From a virus (taxonomy: Duplodnaviria > Caudoviricetes): a stretch of 64,000 nucleotides of DNA. The notes below the pieces were generated by a model that saw only the letters and a list, made by a program, of their open reading frames with translations, was not told the DNA's origin and ran no database searches. The stretch is taken from positions 32,001 to 96,000 of the IMG/VR virus record IMGVR_UViG_3300028833_005986; one strand, 5' to 3'. Every line of letters starts with the position of its first letter. Position 1 is the stretch's first letter. Positions 49 to 47,888 of this stretch are shown here, in pieces. A program made the position numbers and the translations under genes.

Positions 49-84
49 ATGAAATATTCATATTAAATTGCTATAAATAGTAAA

Positions 85-326
85 TAAACTCCCATGCTAA
101 AGTTATCTCATGTTTTAATTTTACCTACATAGTAGGTAAAATATGACTATAACACTGTTACTTTATATATTAAGAGATACTCAAGTAGGAATATATAAAG
201 TAACTGTTTAATTATAATCCGTAGAGTTTTAAACTGGAAGAACACTTAAAAGTACCTATAATATAATGAGATAACGTAGTCTACTCTGTAGACTTAAGCT
301 GATAGGTTAATTGAGTATTAACCTAT
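85..326 (-). ncRNA. HEARO / IscB-type omegaRNA scaffold (cognate iscB would lie off the left edge)
   Basis: Minus strand reads hairpin ATAGGTTAAT-actca-ATTAACCTAT, then CAGCTTAAGTC..GACTACGTTATCTCA..ATAGGTACTTTTAAGTG..CCAGTTTAAAACTCTACG..TAAACAGTT..AACAGTGTT..AAAACATGAGATAACTTTAGC. This is the order of conserved blocks in HEARO/omegaRNAs; GTTATCTCA pairs with TGAGATAAC. Confidence 0.85.
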
Positions 327-2182: not shown

Positions 2183-5100
2183 TTATTGATCTTCTTCAAA
2201 CATTTTTTCGCTTACTAAATCATTATACAGTTTATTTTCAAGTTTTTTTCTAGCGTCTCCGTCCTCAACGGTATTTTGCTTTTCAATAACCCATTTAGGC
2301 GGATATTTATATATAGAAGTTTTTATTCCATTAGCATATTTAGTTTTAGCAGCTTGTCCCATAGATGCTTGCATAAAATTTATATATGTTTCCATTATAC
2401 CTTCTATAGTAATTCCTGTATCTCCGTTTCTTCGTTCTTTCCCGCGTTCATTAGCAGCCATATTATACCACTTAGATATAAATGATTTAGGAGTTCTAAT
2501 ATAAGCTAAACCATGACACAATTTAGCATCTGAACTTTTTAAATATCGTTTTACTTCTTCTTTTATGTCTGATAAATCTTGTAAAGCAGCTAATCCAATT
2601 GAAGATAATAAAGTATTAGCATCACTTACAGCATCTGCGATATACTGTAATTCTTCATCAATATTTATATTTTTAAATACTGTAAGTTTTCCCTTAAAGC
2701 CTTCTGCTTCTGCTTCTACTTGTTCCTTTTCCATTTCTGTATGAAGTTTATTAAAACGATTACTAATATTATATTTACCAGTTCCAAAAAATGCTACAGC
2801 AAATGGAGAAATCCTACCATATTGATCACAACAGCCTTCAATATAAGGCTCGACTCGAGCATGAATTGCTTTTATTTTTTGTAAACCTTCGTCAGTATTA
2901 ATATCAATATTATATAAAGTATTTATAAAATAAAATAATACTGATTGTCGTTTTTTATTATCTAATTCTAATATCGTATTACGTAATCTTTTTTGTATTC
3001 CTAATAAAATTTGTTCTTGTATTTTACCTAATTGATTTATTTTAATTAACCAATTTTTATTTAATTGGTGTAAATCTTTATCATAATAATCGTCTTCATA
3101 TTCTTTTTGAGTATCATATAATTGATTAAATATATTATTATATATCTGTTTTGCGGTACATTTTCCCCATACCGAATCTTTATATATAATATCAATAGAA
3201 TTCGCAATATTAAAACGCTTAAATGTTTTCCATAAATTTATATTTTCTCCGTATTTTATTAATAAGCATGTTTGAGTTTTTGTGCTATTATAAATTTTTA
3301 TATAGAATTGAGTATTTTCTTCTTCTCCAAAATTTTGCATTATTGAATTATTAGCTTCATTTTCATTGTTATCTGGATTTCTTGCTGCTATATTTTGATT
3401 TGATATCCATGTTTGAATTAAGCTATAAATATTATGCGGGTGATTACCGGATTTATTATTTTTTAATAATTTTCTGAATAAATATTAAAATTATATTTTT
3501 AATATTAAAATAAAATATTTTTAATATCTTTTAAAATAGATTTTAATATATTATACTTATATTTATGTATAAGCATAGATTATATCTTTATATAAAAATT
3601 ATATAAATAAAATTCAACAAAAATATTTACTATATATAATCGTTATATTATTTATTATAAATTTATAATGAATAATTATGAATTTTAATATAATTATTAT
3701 ATTTTCATAAATTATATTAATTATGCTACTTTATATATAAATAGCTTCATTAATATCATTAATTCTTTCGGTTGAGCATAATTCATTTATTTGATTTATG
3801 AAACTACCAATACTCGTACGATAGCTAGTTAATAAATTTGATATACGCTGTTTAGGATGCAGTTCTTCCCATGTTGCTATATTATCTTTAATAATTTGTG
3901 TACTAGATTTTAAACTGCATAAATCATCAATCATTTTTCGAAGATATTTTATAACTGTATGCCATCTTTCTGGAGAAAACTTTTTTTTAGCTTGTGCAGA
4001 ATTAGAATCGCGCTTTTTCATATATACGTCATTTAATTTTTGTAAAGTTTCTTCTAACGATGAAAATCCGCCATGTGATAATTCTAAAAAATCATCTAAT
4101 TTTTGATTATTAATTACATTTATAATTTCTCCAAAAGACTGATTCGTTACAGGTGTAATAAAATTATTTTTAGAATTTAAGGCCTTATATTTATTATTAA
4201 AGCATGTGTTACGGTATCTTTGTAATTTACTAGTATTATTTTTAATAGCATCAGTTAATTCTTTTAAAGTAGTAATATCATTTAATATAGGATTATTACT
4301 AAATGTTGAAGCTAAATTTAATGCTAATTGTCTAGCTCGTAAAAAGACATTATTATCGAATTCTTCTAATTTAGCATTTTCTTCAATAGTTAAATTCAAA
4401 TTTAATAAATTACGGCGTATATTAACTATACTACGTAATTGAGAAATAATAATATCAGCTTGTTTTGAAGTTAACTCCTTATCTTTTACGCGTTGATATA
4501 ATTTTTCAATTATATCATTACCAAAATATCTATGACATTCTTCTAAATTAAATTGCTCAATACCTTGTGGATCTAATAATATTTTACGATTATTAACCTT
4601 TTTAATAACATCTGGATCTGTTAATGCTGATTCGTCATATTTATCATAAATATTTGAATTTTTTAAAATTGTATCAAAAATAGCTCTTTTTAAATTATCA
4701 AATAATTGTTGATATTTATTTATATTAATAGATGCAAAGGAATTTAAACCTTCAACTATAGCTTTACGTAATTCGGTATACTGTTCAGATGCCAATGAAT
4801 TAACTTGTACTTGTTGATATTTTTTAAAAAAAATTTCAATTCGTCTTATTAAGGCAAAAAAACCATATACTTTGTTAAGCGTAGCTTCGCTATCTTGTGA
4901 ATCTTTTACGCCTTCTTTATAAATTTTATATATCTGATTAACAATACGTTCTTTATTAACATTAGTATATTCATTATGCGCACGATTTAACCAAGAAAAA
5001 GATGTAGCATAAATTGAATCTTTAATAATTGGTAGTAAATCAGCATAATATTTAGCTTGTTTTAAAAATTGCCTTATAAATCGAGCGAATCGCAATTGAA

Positions 5101-31432: not shown

Positions 31433-32455
31433 TTAAAAAATTCGTTTAGCTAGTCGTGCTTGTTTTAATATTCCGCTTTGATTTCTTGGAGCGGAAGAAA
31501 TAAATACTTTTAATATATTTGGTTCTTCTCTTTTAATAATATCTGCTACTTCTTGTAAAGAATTATATCCATTATGTTCATTAGTTGATAAAATAGCTAT
31601 TAACCCATGTAAATATGCACAATTAAATACTTCAACACCATCTTTATTTTTACAATTATTTCTTAATTCTGGATATTGATTCAATACATCATTATGATGC
31701 TGTCCATAATCGCCAATTAATACATGATCAGTATTATCCTTAAAATTGTGTATAACAACAATTGGTGCATCACGTAAAAACGGTATTTGTGGGTCAAAAT
31801 CAATATATTCTTTTCCATTATTCGAATCTTCTAACTTATTTATTTTTAATCTATGGTTTCTACGTTTATTTATTATATTGTTATTTTTTTCTTTTATGTA
31901 ATTTTGCAAAATACTATTAATTTGTGCAAATGTCTTATTCCAATTAAATTTTTTATATAATGTATTAATTCCAAAATTAACATATCTTAGCTTTTTATAA
32001 TTTGGACATACTTTACACACAATATTAAATAAATTAAAACTAGTATCATCTTCATTAATAAAAAAATAATCATTTAAATTAGGCTTATAATAAATATCAT
32101 AAAGCATAGTATCTCTATCTCGCGGCCACGATAATTCATCTATAATAGTTTTAATATTATTTTTAACCCATGCTACAGTTTCTTTTTGTACTAATTGTGC
32201 TAATTGTTGCGGAGTCATTTCAATATAGTCTTTAAATGATTTCGGCTGATATTTATTAATATAATTAATTATTAAATCTTCATTATTATATATATATTGA
32301 TTAATTAATTTTGTATTAAATACTTTTACCATACATGTATTTAAATATTCTATAATTCTTTCTTTATTAAAATCAAAACAATCCTTATATAAGTATAAAG
32401 ACATATTATTTAAATAATCTTGAATTTTTTCACGTATCTGTCTATTACTAAAAAT
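31433..32455 (-). CDS. hypothetical protein, paralogue of 57931-58929; probable ATT start at 32455
   Basis: LRDAPIVV..DHVLIGDYGQHH C-terminal domain; frame open to ATT behind a GAGGTGA RBS. Confidence 0.7.
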   Translation of the reverse strand: MFSNRQIREKIQDYLNNMSLYLYKDCFDFNKERIIEYLNTCMVKVFNTKLINQYIYNNEDLIINYINKYQPKSFKDYIEMTPQQLAQLVQKETVAWVKNNIKTIIDELSWPRDRDTMLYDIYYKPNLNDYFFINEDDTSFNLFNIVCKVCPNYKKLRYVNFGINTLYKKFNWNKTFAQINSILQNYIKEKNNNIINKRRNHRLKINKLEDSNNGKEYIDFDPQIPFLRDAPIVVIHNFKDNTDHVLIGDYGQHHNDVLNQYPELRNNCKNKDGVEVFNCAYLHGLIAILSTNEHNGYNSLQEVADIIKREEPNILKVFISSAPRNQSGILKQARLAKRIF

Positions 32456-35686: not shown

Positions 35687-36686
35687 TAATTATATTGTTC
35701 TAATAACCATAATGCATCAACTTTTTCATTAATAAATCTATTTCTTAATCCATTAATTACACTTAAATTATAAGCGTGACAGAAATTATAAGTTGATCGA
35801 TAATATCCTAAATTATAATCCCAATATACAGAATCGCATTCACCAATTAAAAAGTTATAAATTTCAATAATAATATCATTATCAAAATATGCACTATCAA
35901 TATAGGATAAATTAGGATATTCAAATATATCTTCATTTACATATTCTAATAAGCTAATACATCCAGAATTGCCATTTTGAATCGCACGAGCAAAAATTAC
36001 ACTTTGCATTGCAAATGAATGTTTATCTATATTAAAATATTTAACTTTTAAACGCTGTAACACAGGATAATAATATTGACTTAATGCAAATTCATCTTGT
36101 AGCTTTTCAAAATTACCGGGATCAACATTACCTAATTGCTGCCACAATTTAATAAATTTATTACTATTAATAGTATACTTATTTAATTCTTTACCATAAT
36201 TCGCTAATCGAGGGTGTGAATAATTACATAACCATTGTACAAATTCATCTACTACTCCAACGGTAGATGAGAATTGATATTTCTAGTATATTTATTCAAT
36301 TTTTCTTTAAAAAAATTCTATATGTAATTAAATTATATTAGAATTTATTTGAAGAAAAATTGAATAAAATTATTAATCTATTTATATGAAATTAAATAGC
36401 ATATGACTATATCTTTATTAAAAGACTTTTAATAAATTTCGATATAATTAAATATATTTACTTATAATTAGTCGTTAGATAAATATTTATTATATTAATA
36501 AATATTTATTATTGATATATTAAATATTAATTATATCAATAATTATATATTATATTAATAGCATTAATATTTACCATAAGATTGTCCACCAATATCTCCA
36601 TAACCAGTAGAAACAAATCCTGGTCCGCGGCCAGAAGTTTCATATTTATTAATTAAATATGTAATAATTGGAATATATTCATTCAT
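35686..36686 (-). CDS. peptidoglycan hydrolase (VgrG3 C-terminal-like muramidase), spliced from exons 36686-36573 and 36282-35686 (236 aa)
   Basis: Spliced motif KYETSGRGPGFVSTGYGDIGGQSYG|KYQFSSTVG; later F..LQ.EF....YY.P, ARAIQNG, GLRNRF.NE. Confidence 0.85.
36283..36572 (-). ncRNA. group I-like intron, 290 nt
   Basis: P1 ATGGT/GCTAT (U.G); R CTAACGACTA, S AAGATATAGTCA; ends CTAG; restores the SYGKYQ motif. Confidence 0.92.
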
Positions 36687-37267: not shown

Positions 37268-40200
37268 TTAAAATGTTAATCTCCATGTACACTAAATAAT
37301 ATTGGACTATATAATTAATTAATAAAGTTATTATAGTCTCTGAAGAATATACAAATTCTTACTGATTAAATTATTATTAATTACTTTCAGTAATTTAAAC
37401 TTTTTATATAACTACTACATATATTAAATAGTTAATCTAGAACTTGCGTCTTTCTAATATATTATTATTTTAGCATATACTTAAAATATCTTATATATTT
37501 TATATAAGTTTAGATTATATCTTTTATATAATTAAATATAAACTATTATTATAATCGTTGTATATATAAATTATTCTTATATAATTTATATATTACTAAT
37601 TAATATTATTAATAATATTTTTAGTAAATAAATAATTTACGGAACAAAAATCTATTATAAGAATATAAAATTTTTATAATAATAAAAAACATCGTTCCAA
37701 ACTGGAAATACTTTCATTATTTTTTATTTGGACTATATCATATATAAAAATTATTTATATTAATATTACTAGTCTCTGATATGATTAATAATCATATACT
37801 GATTTATTTATTAAAAATAAATATTCCAGTAATTTTATTATTTTATAATCGTAAAGTATTTAAAATATAATCAAAATTTTATCAGCGATTGAACATATAA
37901 CCAGTATCTTTTCCAGCTCCATTTTCCCAGGCAGAAGCATTTCCGCCAAATATAGCCATTTCAGTAATTGGACCTACAGCTTCATCTTCATTAAATGTTG
38001 TTACTAATTTTAGAATATTCGTATTATAATCTTGCTGATAATTTTTAAAATATCTTCTCATCTTAAAAATTCATACCAATTAAGCTCTCTTGTTATTATA
38101 TATGTACTAATATATAATCAAATCAATCTACACTTCGCAGCGTATTCTAAAATCAATTCAATATATACTTATCTCTTATATATATCATAATCAATTCTAT
38201 ATTGATTCTTGAACTCTAATTCGTATTGGCGCTACCAGCGCACCTCTACAGTATAAAGTAGATATATCTTCATATAAATTATGTATATCTCGACTTTCTA
38301 TTAAGTCTTCATAAGATATCTTTCTACTTATAACCTTACCTTTATTTAACTGTTTTATTTTTTTATATTCTTTATTTAATAAATATTTCTTTAATATATT
38401 CAAAGATCCATTCATATCTGCATTTATTAATATACCATTCTTGGACTTATAAAGTCCTCTCTTTATTCTCTTACCTGCAAAGTGTTTCTTTTTTAATTCT
38501 ATCTTATCATTTATTGTTCTTAATACATATCCTAATTTTTCATCTTTTTTATATGATAATATATAATCATTATCTAAGAAAGAAGCTTTAGATGTAAATG
38601 ATTCTTCTTGAAGAACAAATTTAATATTATTCATCTTACATCTATATTCTAAATTATCTTTTATCTTACTAAATGGTATACTAGTAAAGAATTGATTATT
38701 TTTCTTACCTAAATTAGATTTTCTTTGAAAGTCATTGTTCCATCCTAATATAATAATTTTTATATTATTTTGTAAAGAATAATCTATTAATTTTTTACAA
38801 ATCTTATGGATATAATAATTAACTTTATTATTTCTTTTCTTTAATATATTATACATCTTTTTTGTATATCTTAATTTTTTATTAGTATTTTTCTTTTGTA
38901 ATTTACTAATAATTCTATTATATCCTTGATTTATAGATTTCAATTCTTTACCATCTAATATAAAACTATTAATTTTTTTCTTAGAATTATGATTATAATT
39001 AATACAAGTCATTAAATTATTAATGCCTAAATCAATTGATAAATAATTATTATTAACTTGTATATTATCATTAATTTCTATTTCATAGGTATAATGAATT
39101 TCAAAAATTTTACCTTTATATTTAGGAATTACTTGAATATATTTTATTTTTTTATCTTTTAATATAGCAGGTATTTTTATTCTAAATCTATCTTTACTTT
39201 TTAAAGTTAAATTATATTCTTTTAATATTTGATAACTTAGAGGAATAATCCATTCATTATTTTTATTTATATGAATTTTATTAGTTGGAAGTATAAAATA
39301 ATCATTTTTGTCTAAATATTTAGGAATATTACATTTTAAACCTTTTTGTTTTAAAGTGAAGAAAGATTTAAAATTTTCATCTATTATATATAAGATATTA
39401 CAACTACAATTAGCTTCTAATAATTTATAATTAATATTATTTTTAATACTATGATAATTATCTATATAATTTAAATATTTACCAATATTAAAGAAATATT
39501 GTCTAATATTATATAGAGCAGAATTATATAGATTTTTACTATATTTACATAATTTTTTAAATAATATATATAATTGTTTATATTTATATATACTGACTTG
39601 TTGTTTAACAGTTAAATAACATTTTTCTTTTTTATTGATATTATTTTTAAGATTTCTACTAATAATAATAATTCACATCTTTTTAATATTATAAATTTTA
39701 ATAATATTAACAGTTTAAATAACTATTAGTAATAGGATTAGATATTTTAAAACCTATTAAGCTTTGATTTTAATTAAAGCATAGATTATATCATTAATAT
39801 ATAAGATATATAATTAATGATTCTATAGAAATATACAATATTAATCGTTAGATAGATATATATTGATAAAATATATATTTATTATTGATCTATTATAAAA
39901 TTATAAATATTCCAATAAATAATTAAATTATCAAACCATTGTATGGTTCATCGTTTTCATCAACAAAACACCACGAAGTAAATTTCTTACGATATAATTC
40001 ACCTACTAATCTAGTATCAGTTAATTGTGCTTTATGTTCCACCTCTGGATCCATAATATCCCATAATACTGTATTAACTTTATTATTTACACGGTCATAT
40101 GGCTGATCTTCGTGTTCGAGAATACCAACGCCAACAGCTAAAACCTGTAAGCCTGTAATTTTTTGAATATCACTAACAGTAGTACCAGTTTCCGATTCCA

Positions 40201-40570: not shown

Positions 40571-42162
40571 TTATATAGCTAACAAATTAATAAATTCAAG
40601 TTCTTTACGTAATTGCTTATTTTCTTCTATTAAAGCTTCAATTCCTTTAGTATGAATATCCATATTATCTTGAGTATCTTTTACATAAGTATTAAAATTA
40701 CTTAATTGTAAATATTTCGTATTTAATTCATTCGTTCCTAAAAATGCTTGATAGCGCTGATCTTGTATATCATTCCAATAAATTACATTAGCAAATTTAC
40801 CGTCTAATGATACTCTATCGGATATAGAACTAAAATTTTGCCAATTAATTGCTCCATAAATATTATGATAAGCATTATAGCCGGTTGTGTTTAATCTAGC
40901 GACTTCAAATAAAGGTATTGCATAAACATATCCATCCATAGTATTAAAGATATTCATAGTTTCTGCGCCTTTACCTGCAATAAACATATGCGGGTCATTA
41001 AACGGTTCAAAATCAGCCGTAGTATATATATAATCTAAATTATCATAAACTTTTGGACCTTGCTGATATTTTTTAAAATATCTTTTCGTATTTTAAAAAT
41101 TTATTAAGCTTTAATGATTTAGTTAAAGCATAGATTATATCATTAATATATAAGATATATAATTAATGATTCTATTAGTATATACCTATAAAATTAATCG
41201 TTAAATATATATTTATTATTAATAAATATATATTATTGATCTATTATAATGGTTTATAAATATATCAATAAATTTTAAATTAATAATCCCTTATAAGGAT
41301 GTATATCTAAATCTTCAATACGATTTTTACCGTTATCATAATGTAATTCATGTTTATCTTCAATTGCTCTAATACACCATTGTAATTGAATTCTAGTTGT
41401 GCTGGGAATAGAAATACGATGATCAATCATTTCAAATGCTACTGAATCATTAGCTATACCACCAAATAAAGGAATGTCATCTCTAAATTTAATTTCTTTA
41501 AACCAAAATTCTAATATTACTAAATCTTGGCGTCTAACAGATGTAGCTGTAGGTGGAGGTAAATATACAACTAATCCATCGCGTTTACTTGATTCAATTC
41601 TTACAATATGTCCATGTAAAACTGCATGAAATGGATTAATAATAAAATTATTTAATTCTAATTGTGAGCCAATAGTACTAGCATCTTGAATAATATGATC
41701 ATGTTTATCTCTAATTAAAAATTGATGTGCTTTATATGCGCCTAATTCATCAGTATTAGCATTATTTGAAATTTGTAAGCATCCTGAATGCGTCATAGTT
41801 CTAATTAATTTTGCTCGTTCTTCAATCTGAATCCATTGAAGTTCCTTTATATATTTATATATTTAAATATACTTTTTAAATACATTTTTATTAAAAGTCT
41901 TAAAATAAAAATGGTTAGACTATATCTTTTTTTAAAAATAAAAATTATTATATAGTCGTTGAATATATAGATTTTTATATAAAAATTTATATATTACTAA
42001 ATAAATTGATTATTTTTAGTAATTAAATAATTCGATTGGAACAAATTTATTCCATTCATCTTCAATTAAGAAAGCATCTGATCCACCTTTTAATGACAAA
42101 AAATTAACAGTAGGATCAAATTTACCTTTCGCATTTCGTGAAAAATCAGGAAAATATGCCAT
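40571..42162 (-). CDS. virion structural protein, 3 exons (42162-42049, 41844-41287, 41062-40571; ~387 aa), paralogous to the N-terminus of 27189-31424
   Basis: IEDEWN|ELQWIQ, RQDLVILEFW, STTRIQLQW, YAIPLFEVARLN, DGKFANVI..NDIQDQR. Confidence 0.82.
41063..41286 (-). mobile_element. 224-nt tnpB-less intron of the same family as the IStrons
   Basis: Shares the 5' core (ATAATAGATCAATA, TAACGATTAA, AGAATCATTAATTATATATCTTATATATTAATGATATAATCTATGCTTTAA) and the 3' end (AGATATTTTAAAAA.TATCAG). Confidence 0.85.
41845..42048 (-). ncRNA. group I-like intron, 204 nt
   Basis: P1 TGGAAT/GTTCCA (U.G); R TCAACGACTA, S AAGATATAGTCT; ends AAAG. Confidence 0.92.
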
Positions 42163-45649: not shown

Positions 45650-47888
45650 TTATATATAATTATCAATTATATTACCAATATAATAATAATTATTATAATT
45701 TAATAAATAATTTTCACTATATGTATTTTCACGATCAATTGTTGTTTTAAAATCGTTTATATATGTTTCAATGTCATCTATACCATTTATACCTTTCATT
45801 GATTTTTTAATATCATCAATCTGAGATTGTGCTTTATGCTGCTGATAATTAATAAATTTATATTCACTAATCTCATTAACTTGATGTATACGTTTATATT
45901 TATTCTGATAATTTTTAAAATATCTTCTCATCTTAAAAATTCATACCAATTAAGCTCTCTACTTCTCAATATATTAATCACTTAATATATCTAAAATCAA
46001 ATCAATCTACACTTCACAGTATATTCTAAAATCAATTCAATATATACTTATCCTTTATATATATCATAATCAATTTCATATTGATTCTTGAGCTTTAATT
46101 CGTATTGGCGCTACCAGCGCACCTCTACAGTATAAAGTAGATATATCTTCATATAAATTATGTATATCTCGACTTTCTATTAAGTCTTCATAAGATATCT
46201 TTCTACTTACGACCTTACATTTATTTTTATTTAACTGTTTTATTTTTTCATATTCTTTATTTAATAAATATTTCTTTAATATATTCAAAGCACCATTCAT
46301 ATCTGCATTGATTAATATACCATTCTTGGACTTATAAAGTCCTCTCTTCACTCTCTTACCTGTAAAGAGCTTCTTTCTTAATTCTACTTTATTATCTATT
46401 GTTCTTAATACATATCCTAATTTTTCATCTTTCTTATATGATAACATATAATCATTATCTAAAAAAGATGCTTTAGATGTAAATGATTCTTCTTGAAGAA
46501 CAAATTTTATATTATTCATTTTGCATCTATATTCTAAATTATCTTTTATTTTACTAAATGGTATACTAGTAAAAAATTGATTATTTTTTCTACCTAAATT
46601 AGTTTTTCTTTGAAAATCACTATTCCAACCTAATACAATAGTTTTTATATTATTAGCTAAGCAATAATCTATAAGTTTTTTACAGGTCTTATGAATATAA
46701 TAATTAATTTTATTATTTCGCTTCTTTAATATATTATACATCTTTTTTGTGTATCTTAATTTCTTATTAGTATTTAATTTTTGTAATTTACTAATAATTC
46801 TATTATATCCTTGATTTATAGATTTTAATTCTTTACCATCTAATATAAAACTATTAATTTTTTTATTAGAATTATGATTATAACTAATACAAGTAAATAA
46901 ATTATTAATACCTAAATCAATAGCTAAATAATTATTATTAACTTGTATATTATCATTAATTTCTATTTCATATGTATAATGAATTTCGAATATTTTACCT
47001 TTATATTTAGGAATAACTTGAATATATTTTATTTTTTTATCTTTTAATATAGCAGGTATTTTTATTCTAAATCTATCTTTACTTTGCGAAGTTAAGTTAT
47101 ATTCTTTTAATATTTGATAACTTAAAGGAATAATCCATTCGTTATTACTATTAATATGAATTTTATGCGTAGGTAATATAAAATAATCATTTTTATCTAA
47201 ATATTTAGGAATATTGCATTTTAATTTTTTTTGTTTTAAAGCGAAGAAAGATTTAAAATTTTCATCTATTATATGTAAAATATTATTACTACAATTAGCT
47301 TCTAATAATTTATAATTGATATTATTTTTAATATTATGATAATTATTATTATAATTTAAATATTTATTAGTATTAAAGAAATATTGTCTAATATTATATA
47401 AAGCAGAATTATATAAATTTTTACTATATTTACACAATTTTTTGAATAATATATATAATTGTTTATATTTATATTTACTAACTTGTTGTTTAACAGTTAA
47501 ATAAAATTTTTCTTTTTTATTGATATTTTTTTTAAGATTTCTACTAATAATAATCAACTACCTTTTAATATTAATATAATAATATAAATAGATAATGATT
47601 ATTAAAAAGTAATAGGATTAGATATTTTAAAATCTATTATACTTTAATATTTAATTAAAGCATAGATTATATCATTAATATATAAGATATAAGATATATA
47701 ATTAATGATTCTATAATAATATACAATATTAATCGTTAGATAGCTATATATTGATATAATATATAGCTATTATTGATCTATTATGAGATTATAAATATTC
47801 CAATAAATAATTAAATTATTAAACCATTATTAGGTTCAGGCATATTAAATAATAACCATGAAGTATCTGTTATATACATATTCATCAT
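45650..47888 (-). CDS. small tail-fibre-associated protein, spliced from exons 47888-47823 and 45904-45650 (106 aa)
   Basis: AGGAGG RBS; MMNMYITDTSWLLFNMPEPNNG|NKYKRIHQVNE in frame. Confidence 0.7.
45905..47822 (-). mobile_element. IStron-like element 2: group I intron core + tnpB + right end/omegaRNA
   Basis: Same architecture and termini as 38035-39934. Confidence 0.87.
46076..47557 (-). CDS. tnpB: IS607-type TnpB RNA-guided nuclease
   Basis: AIDLG, VLGWN, QEESFTSKASFLD, INADMNG; no C4 zinc finger. Confidence 0.92.
   Translation of the reverse strand: MIIISRNLKKNINKKEKFYLTVKQQVSKYKYKQLYILFKKLCKYSKNLYNSALYNIRQYFFNTNKYLNYNNNYHNIKNNINYKLLEANCSNNILHIIDENFKSFFALKQKKLKCNIPKYLDKNDYFILPTHKIHINSNNEWIIPLSYQILKEYNLTSQSKDRFRIKIPAILKDKKIKYIQVIPKYKGKIFEIHYTYEIEINDNIQVNNNYLAIDLGINNLFTCISYNHNSNKKINSFILDGKELKSINQGYNRIISKLQKLNTNKKLRYTKKMYNILKKRNNKINYYIHKTCKKLIDYCLANNIKTIVLGWNSDFQRKTNLGRKNNQFFTSIPFSKIKDNLEYRCKMNNIKFVLQEESFTSKASFLDNDYMLSYKKDEKLGYVLRTIDNKVELRKKLFTGKRVKRGLYKSKNGILINADMNGALNILKKYLLNKEYEKIKQLNKNKCKVVSRKISYEDLIESRDIHNLYEDISTLYCRGALVAPIRIKAQESI

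Follow-up and report, generated by a model that had tools for sequence, protein, structure and literature searches.

A 233-nt group I intron in a rumen phage, best read as a deletion derivative of a tnpB-carrying IStron

Introduction

The Azoarcus tRNA-Ile group I intron, at ~205 nt, is self-splicing and G+C-rich. IStrons are larger, and both ORF-less IStron derivatives and IStrons residing in phages have been published. In emetic Bacillus cereus, Tourasse et al. (2014) described ORF-less BcISt1, a member of the group B IStrons that carries one direct repeat and a 3' inverted repeat, and excision of the BcISt1 ORF module between repeats was reproduced in E. coli, where it depended on ORF B and RecA (PMC4227781). 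Known group A (IS200/IS605-type) IStrons use TTGAT, ATTAT or TTTAT as targets and have a TCAG 3' end (PMC4227781; bioRxiv 10.1101/2023.11.20.567912). In CboIStron, removal of most guide-RNA stem-loops increases splicing and abolishes TnpB targeting, and the last stem-loop is needed for splicing (bioRxiv 10.1101/2023.11.20.567912).

Here we describe an ORF-less intron (hereafter the mini-intron) located in a 64,000-nt stretch of phage DNA (Duplodnaviria; Caudoviricetes), the window, which spans positions 32,001 to 96,000 of IMG/VR virus record IMGVR_UViG_3300028833_005986. The mini-intron is very probably a group I intron that is precisely removed from its transcript and descends from a tnpB-carrying IStron by a deletion of ~1.67 kb.

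Results

Host gene and probable removal of the mini-intron

The record to which the window belongs has a length of 166,990 bp, a G+C content of 22.8% and a CheckV completeness estimate of 34%, and carries nearly all of its genes on the − strand; the runs that contain the window stretch are metagenomes and metatranscriptomes from sheep gut or rumen. Among named phages, the closest TnpB is that of Prevotella megaphage Lak-A1 (38.8% identity). Big intergenic regions with high expression have been reported for Lak phages (PMC6784885), and one may speculate that regions of this type, in phages like the present one, could be introns.

The mini-intron splits its host gene directly after a Pro codon and ahead of a Gln codon (His-Pro|Gln-Gly), and the ORFs of 173 and 138 aa that flank it are two halves of a single gene with a 384-aa product (Table 1). 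Fifteen longer homologues (P0001-P0015) are uninterrupted at this position (DIHP|QGPKV), and a contig of a relative, L001, contains an empty site (CAC CCG|CAA GGG). The product matches no Pfam or PHROG family; by tblastn against the phage collection, exon 2 had no match and the sole match of exon 1 was a weak one to Bacillus phage G gp423. The second intron of the gene is of an unrelated type, and its P1 pairs GGAAU with GUUCC (41845-42048, − strand).

Seven blocks of JGI contig L004 (2,261 nt; source sample 3300024342) match the window at 99-100% identity, with six introns absent, one of which is the mini-intron. Protein P0020 is identical to the joined exons at 330/330 residues, and each of the six missing introns has a 3'-terminal G. 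Because the six absences are precise at such exon identity, the contig is best read, from its sequence, as spliced RNA, which provides transcript-like support for the exact removal of both a parent-type element and its remnant. An exact search of viral and metagenome contigs for the exon-intron junction gave no match.

The homologues and L004 agree with the 3' end of the interval 41063-41286 proposed in the first-pass annotation and move its 5' end to 41295, 9 nt further out; placing it too far in had hidden a canonical U.G 5' splice site, so that the assignment is now to a canonical U.G pair and not to an A. A 5' boundary after a Gly codon, considered from the reading frame alone, is ruled out by the homologues, which put YKG within the intron.

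Among the six introns missing from L004, three have a base other than U at exon position −1 (A, C, C), and the two C residues are at 37694 and 37885. The 1909-nt IStron at 38035-39943 is absent exactly after CCA, so that its last exon base is an A; at this 5' splice site (39944|39943) the A pairs with U at intron position +6 and there is no U.G, and two further copies, those of L020 and of genome 107.9 kb, have the same A-U. L004 also confirms micro-exons of 21 nt (37694-37714) and ~27 nt (37427-37453) within the region 37290-37884, separated by introns of 170, 240 and 137 nt.

Table 1. Coordinates of the mini-intron, its host gene and the related elements (window positions unless marked as genome)
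Feature	Position	Strand	Basis or remark
Host gene exon 1	42049..42162	-	L004 bases 115-228
Second group I intron in host gene, unrelated type, P7 GACUA/UAGUC	41845..42048	-	L004 junction and sequence
Host gene exon 2	41296..41844	-	L004 and P0020
Mini-intron, ORF-less group I intron, 233 nt, 12.4% G+C	41063..41295	-	L004 junction at 100% exon identity, uninterrupted homologues, L001 empty site
Host gene exon 3, including stop codon	40571..41062	-	L004 and P0020
P1 5' strand, last five exon bases AUCCU, U at −1	41296..41300	-	pairs with intron +6 to +10
Internal guide sequence GGGAU (P1 3' strand), intron +6 to +10	41286..41290	-	sequence and covariation
P4-P5 hairpin	41236..41268	-	helix 3: 85% of cells paired, 3 pairs changed on both sides
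P6 hairpin	41204..41234	-	helix 4: 83% of cells paired, 5 pairs changed on both sides
P7 5' strand in R-like box (A, bulged C, GAUU)	41196..41201	-	helix 5: 100% of cells paired
P8 hairpin	41139..41170	-	helix 6: 86% of cells paired
P7 3' strand in S-like box (GAUAUAAUC)	41132..41136	-	helix 5, same evidence
P9 hairpin, 3' edge overlapping AGCTTAAT (41103-41110)	41108..41129	-	helix 7: 96% paired, 2 pairs changed on both sides
Terminal 11-bp hairpin, one direct repeat and 3' inverted repeat	41070..41099	-	folds, homology to IStron right ends, orthologue L041
Intron-terminal G (omega-G), end of shared TATCAG	41063..41063	-	all family copies end TATCAG; L004 junction
L004 junction	42049 to 41844		removed: intron 41845-42048
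L004 junction	41296 to 41062		removed: mini-intron 41063-41295
L004 junction	39944 to 38034		removed: 1909-nt IStron
L004 junction	37885 to 37714		removed: 170-nt intron
L004 junction	37694 to 37453		removed: 240-nt intron
L004 junction	37427 to 37289		removed: 137-nt intron
Sibling IStron, 1909 nt, tnpB frame open for 491 codons	38035..39943	-	spliced out in L004 (best reading)
Sibling IStron, 1927 nt, tnpB 493 aa	45905..47831	-	sequence comparison and Pfam
Close tnpB-bearing copies, present genome	window 38035-39943; window 45905-47831; genome 107.9 kb; genome 166.2 kb		last copy cut by contig end
More distant tnpB-bearing copies, present genome	genome 110.2 kb; genome 164.1 kb		TnpB 49% identical
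ORF-less copies ending TATCAG, present genome	mini-intron; genome 118.1 kb; genome 117.5 kb		233 nt; 432 nt; 301 nt
tnpB-bearing copies, other metagenome contigs	L003/L008; L016; L020; L021; L027		
ORF-less copies, other metagenome contigs	L013; L018; L027 (other strand)		601 nt; 311 nt; 295 nt

Group I fold

The mini-intron is a compact group I intron, with P1, a putative P3, P4-P5, P6, P7, P8 and P9 elements, a terminal hairpin and a 3' G, and its ~190-nt core has a G+C content of 12%. At the 5' splice site, 41296 and 41290 form the U.G pair, and exon and guide covary across copies (AUCC/GGAU, AACC/GGUU, GAUAU/GUAUC and GCUAU/GUAGC). In an alignment of 16 sequences, the proposed P3-P9 structure pairs 86.2% of cells, compared with 35-49% in slid controls, and 16 of its pairs are changed on both sides; none of 500 shuffles attained that number. 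Within this alignment P3 is weak (66% of cells paired), and in P7, where a bulged base precedes the putative guanosine-binding G-C pair, 100% of cells are paired across the 16 sequences. P7 also changes from U-A to C-G in the copy at 36373-36580, a double change within the alignment; the same swap recurs outside it, in the genome copies at 117.5 and 159.7 kb, and copies with GACUA carry a matching UAGUC in P7. The R-like and S-like boxes that contain the two P7 strands are comparable to the R and S boxes of the Tetrahymena intron. Both MFE and alifold folding are unable to represent the P3/P7 pseudoknot, and the Rfam group I model (RF00028) gave no match to the whole window, either at the gathering score or at E<=10, or to 351 nt searched alone at E<=10. 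The mini-intron presumably self-splices independently of protein.

Kinship with IStrons

In a self-comparison, the mini-intron region 41089-41298 aligns to 39743-39946 (83% over 213 nt, E 3e-51) and to 47623-47834 (81% over 220 nt), and both partner regions flank TnpB frames (Pfam OrfB_IS605 and Cas12f1-like TNB domain). At the opposite end, the last 42 nt (41063-41104) match the IStron right ends at 38035-38074 and 45905-45944 (86%, E 4e-07 in the 167-kb genome); in the self-comparison the aligned stretch is 41059-41104, opposite 38031-38074 and 45905-45944. HMMs built exclusively from tnpB-bearing copies detect both parts, with E values of 1.8e-27 for the core and 0.0012 for the 3' end. Together with the self-comparison matches, this upholds the initial proposal that core and 3' end are common to the mini-intron and the IStrons, without the 1.7 kb between them.

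What the mini-intron and the tnpB-bearing IStrons of the same record have in common is a core of ~200 nt and the last ~40 nt, the latter being the only retained part of the IStron right end. No ORF and no similarity to TnpB is found in its 233 nt, and blastn against the phage collection gave no match. The mini-intron shares both termini and the ribozyme with the tnpB-bearing copies, the features of an ORF-less IStron (PMC4227781), and lacks the internal tnpB and guide-RNA scaffold of a full IStron. Its exon target is AUCCU, and those of its siblings are AACCU, AACCA or GAUAU.

A metagenome scan with a 19-nt core motif returned 22 loci, 14 of which are chance matches in unrelated DNA. The tnpB of the 1909-nt IStron (38297-39672 region) has ATT/ATA start codons, not ATG, GTG or TTG, so that the ORF list shows just a 271-aa piece of its 491-codon frame. 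Further right-end-like termini, ending ATATCAG or AATATCAG, occur at window 32246 and at genome 96385 (equal to window 64385, just outside); as the terminus at genome 96385 adjoins a weak core match (96569-96644), it may belong to another ORF-less derivative. Separately, window 84-326 (− strand) matches the Rfam HEARO RNA, an IscB-associated guide RNA, with a score of 57.6 bits (E 5e-09) that does not reach the gathering score of 83.

Partial remnants and the breakpoint

Derivatives of 295-601 nt in the present genome and related contigs show that tnpB deletions recur in this family. The 432-nt sibling aligns both to ~360 nt from the 5' portion of full-length copies, including ~30 N-terminal tnpB codons, and to their last ~70-85 nt, and the 601-nt element of L013 retains both ends of the tnpB gene.

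On this strand, AGCTTAAT occurs only five times in the window, and four of these occurrences belong to the IStron family: element 38035-39943 has one following its core and one close to its right end, 45905-47831 has one close to its right end, and the mini-intron has one at 41103-41110. The breakpoint had been placed at this microhomology. The join does lie directly 3' of the left AGCTTAAT, but relative to the right copy it is displaced downstream by 7 nt (TGGTATG); because TGGTATG would be expected after the right AGCTTAAT and is missing from the mini-intron, a simple AGCTTAAT x AGCTTAAT crossover does not account for the junction. The join falls within an imperfect direct repeat that is longer than AGCTTAAT and starts immediately 3' of its left copy, and exact microhomology there amounts to ~2-3 nt. 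The idea of a deletion that turns an IStron into an ORF-less intron is thus retained, and that of a clean crossover at the microhomology is abandoned.

In full copies, the ~13 nt that immediately follow P9 form a duplex with a segment located ~10 nt ahead of the 3' end, with predicted energies of −11 to −16 kcal/mol. This pairing is preserved with differing sequences in three subfamilies and closes the leftover insert in every ORF-less form. In addition, the IStron right end folds locally, using the same 3' strand; because one strand serves both pairings, tnpB is flanked by imperfect direct repeats, namely the post-P9 sequence and the 5' arm of this local hairpin. The orthologue in L041 has a hairpin 5' arm of right-end type, so that the join has the end of the left AGCTTAAT(A) on one side and the right-end arm on the other. 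The terminal hairpin is all that survives of the tnpB/right-end module in the mini-intron.

These features suggest a route for the deletion. The ancestor would have been a tnpB-carrying IStron, from a family with at least six copies in the phage record, whose 5' inverted repeat after P9 would pair with the sequence near the 3' end and loop out tnpB, and whose 3' direct repeat, just upstream of the 3' strand, could instead pair locally with that strand. Loss of ~1.67 kb, comprising tnpB and the whole guide-RNA scaffold bar its last hairpin, would have fused the element between or next to the two repeats and left behind a short hairpin built from one repeat and the 3' strand; the repeats may have brought this about by slippage or by recombination.

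Rather than by a single deletion between repeats, the mini-intron could have been eroded stepwise from a truncated sibling of the 601- or 432-nt type. The size series of 601, 432 and 233 nt, the GGGAU guide common to these three elements and the top identity of the mini-intron, which is to L013 (86%), are in keeping with this; we nonetheless consider it unlikely, as the core tree pairs the 432- and 601-nt elements (99/98) and then joins them to the tnpB-bearing L021 rather than to the mini-intron, and as their 5' breakpoints lie at ~360-410, compared with ~194 in the mini-intron.

Strain distribution

In a strain with 89.8% exon identity, this site is occupied by the same intron and the junction is identical; the 5' 91 nt of the mini-intron are 98% identical in L005 and its 3' 87 nt are ~91% identical in L041. 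In another strain, with exons 91.4% identical, the mini-intron site is empty, and the L041 strain is without the 1909-nt IStron. Because a strain diverged by ~10% has the same junction, the deletion is older than that divergence and its remnant is stably inherited; the element is not the fresh snapshot of intron origin that it was initially taken for. Recent horizontal transfer, considered on account of the 98% identity of the 5' 91 nt in L005 compared with 90% in the exon, is rejected, since the 3' 87 nt in L041 are only ~91% identical.

Empty alleles of the mini-intron site (L001:1335-1346) and of the 1909-nt IStron site (L041:1190-1200) have CCG before the junction, and occupied alleles at these two sites have CCU or CCA; the CCG might mark resistant alleles, or flanking bases might be converted upon insertion. 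A neighbouring gene of L001 contains another intron of the IStron family (L001:2323-2496), with a GGGAU guide and located after GAUCCU, ~100 nt upstream of the position of the 1909-nt IStron in the window, which indicates that insertion sites differ among strains.

Polymorphism of the site between strains, together with retention of both ends of the parent element and the report from C. difficile of a similar ORF-less element bounded by IStron ends (bioRxiv 10.1101/2023.11.20.567912), would also be expected if the mini-intron were mainly a non-autonomous, palindrome-associated DNA transposon, mobilized by a transposase in trans and only incidentally active as an intron. This is very improbable: no Y1 or serine transposase was found in the 167-kb record (itself ~34% complete), the exact 233-nt form is present in a single copy in the genome, and its occupation of the same site in a ~10% diverged strain fits vertical descent.

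Direction of change

A maximum-likelihood tree of the cores recovers the close family with 100/100 support and has the distant tnpB-bearing family as its outgroup; within the close family two tnpB-bearing copies branch first (91/74 and 87/82), followed by a polytomy that includes the mini-intron and tnpB-bearing copies. An AU test does not reject the mini-intron as sister to all other family members (p 0.17). Wherever it sits, the common ancestor carried tnpB, because the outgroup has a homologous tnpB (49% amino acid identity) and right end. The core phylogeny, which had been proposed as a check on whether tnpB was gained, thus favours its loss, and the mini-intron is best read from these comparisons as a deletion derivative of an IStron. 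As it has no tnpB codons, we infer its IStron descent rather than read it directly; none of the relatives examined has a full-length IStron at its exact site.

Least probable, and already disfavoured, is the reverse view that the mini-intron is an ancestral, never-invaded intron and that IStrons formed by insertion of a tnpB cassette after its P9: the missing tnpB codons, the polytomy with its unrejected basal alternative and the longest terminal branch (0.18) speak for it, but the distant subfamily (genome 110 and 164 kb, L016) has a homologous tnpB and right end in the same position, so that the common ancestor already carried tnpB, the terminal hairpin of the mini-intron is of right-end type, the pre-insertion sequence predicted from the AGCTTAAT duplication contains the TGGTATG that the mini-intron lacks, and siblings with tnpB remnants prove that deletion occurs in the family.

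Discussion

Read as the product of tnpB loss, the mini-intron stands at the end of a natural decay series of 1.9 kb, 601, 432 and 233 nt, with elements of 295-311 nt in a second subfamily, which shows an RNA-guided mobile intron decaying into a plain intron in a virus. What is new is the very small size of the remnant, a graded deletion series within one phage lineage, the transcript-like support for removal, and a TCAG end together with a guide-matched target that is not T-rich. As the principle was shown for BcISt1 in 2014, the gain lies in a new setting and in detail, not in a new mechanism.

The first-pass annotation further regarded other introns of the window as older IStron products. 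Of these, 37454-37693 shows no right-end remnant and 3474-3740 is ambiguous, so that a general IStron origin of the mini-introns is unproven. It is conceivable, if doubtful, that the repeat/inverted-repeat layout by which IStron RNA would switch between splicing and guide-RNA folds predisposes the DNA to shed tnpB, that IStrons consequently keep supplying minimal group I introns that are then stably inherited, that much of the phage's swarm of 130-300-nt introns is IStron-derived, and that the 233-nt form, at 12% G+C, is near the minimal ribozyme working in vivo.

With the Azoarcus tRNA-Ile intron the mini-intron shares a similar size, the lack of P2 and a short P1, but it is 12% G+C rather than G+C-rich and resides in a protein-coding gene instead of a tRNA. 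Like the CboIStron right-end truncations, it retains the last hairpin only; unlike this natural element, those truncations are engineered laboratory constructs of IS607 type. By analogy, the mini-intron should splice well and would no longer yield a guide for TnpB.

Group A IStrons (CdISt1/CdiIStron) resemble the present family in their TCAG 3' terminus, in a U.G pair inside the P1 stem, in a layout with the ribozyme 5' and tnpB and guide RNA 3', and in having ORF-less relatives, for example one in C. difficile 630 that has IStron ends. They differ in that known group A ribozymes are of class IA2 and detected by Rfam, whereas the ~190-nt core of the mini-intron goes undetected by Rfam, and in that their targets are T-rich pentanucleotides, as opposed to AUCCU for the mini-intron and AACCU/AACCA/GAUAU for its siblings. 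In its long AU-rich stem and direct repeat, the present family instead resembles group B.

In summary, despite its far smaller size (233 nt compared with 482 nt), its location in a huge rumen phage, a TCAG end of group A type, a target (AUCCU) that neither ends in GG nor is T-rich, and a junction with just 2-3 nt of exact microhomology, the mini-intron parallels ORF-less BcISt1 in having lost the ORF module, in keeping the ribozyme and a stem-loop that combines one direct repeat with the 3' inverted repeat, and in being inherited at orthologous loci.
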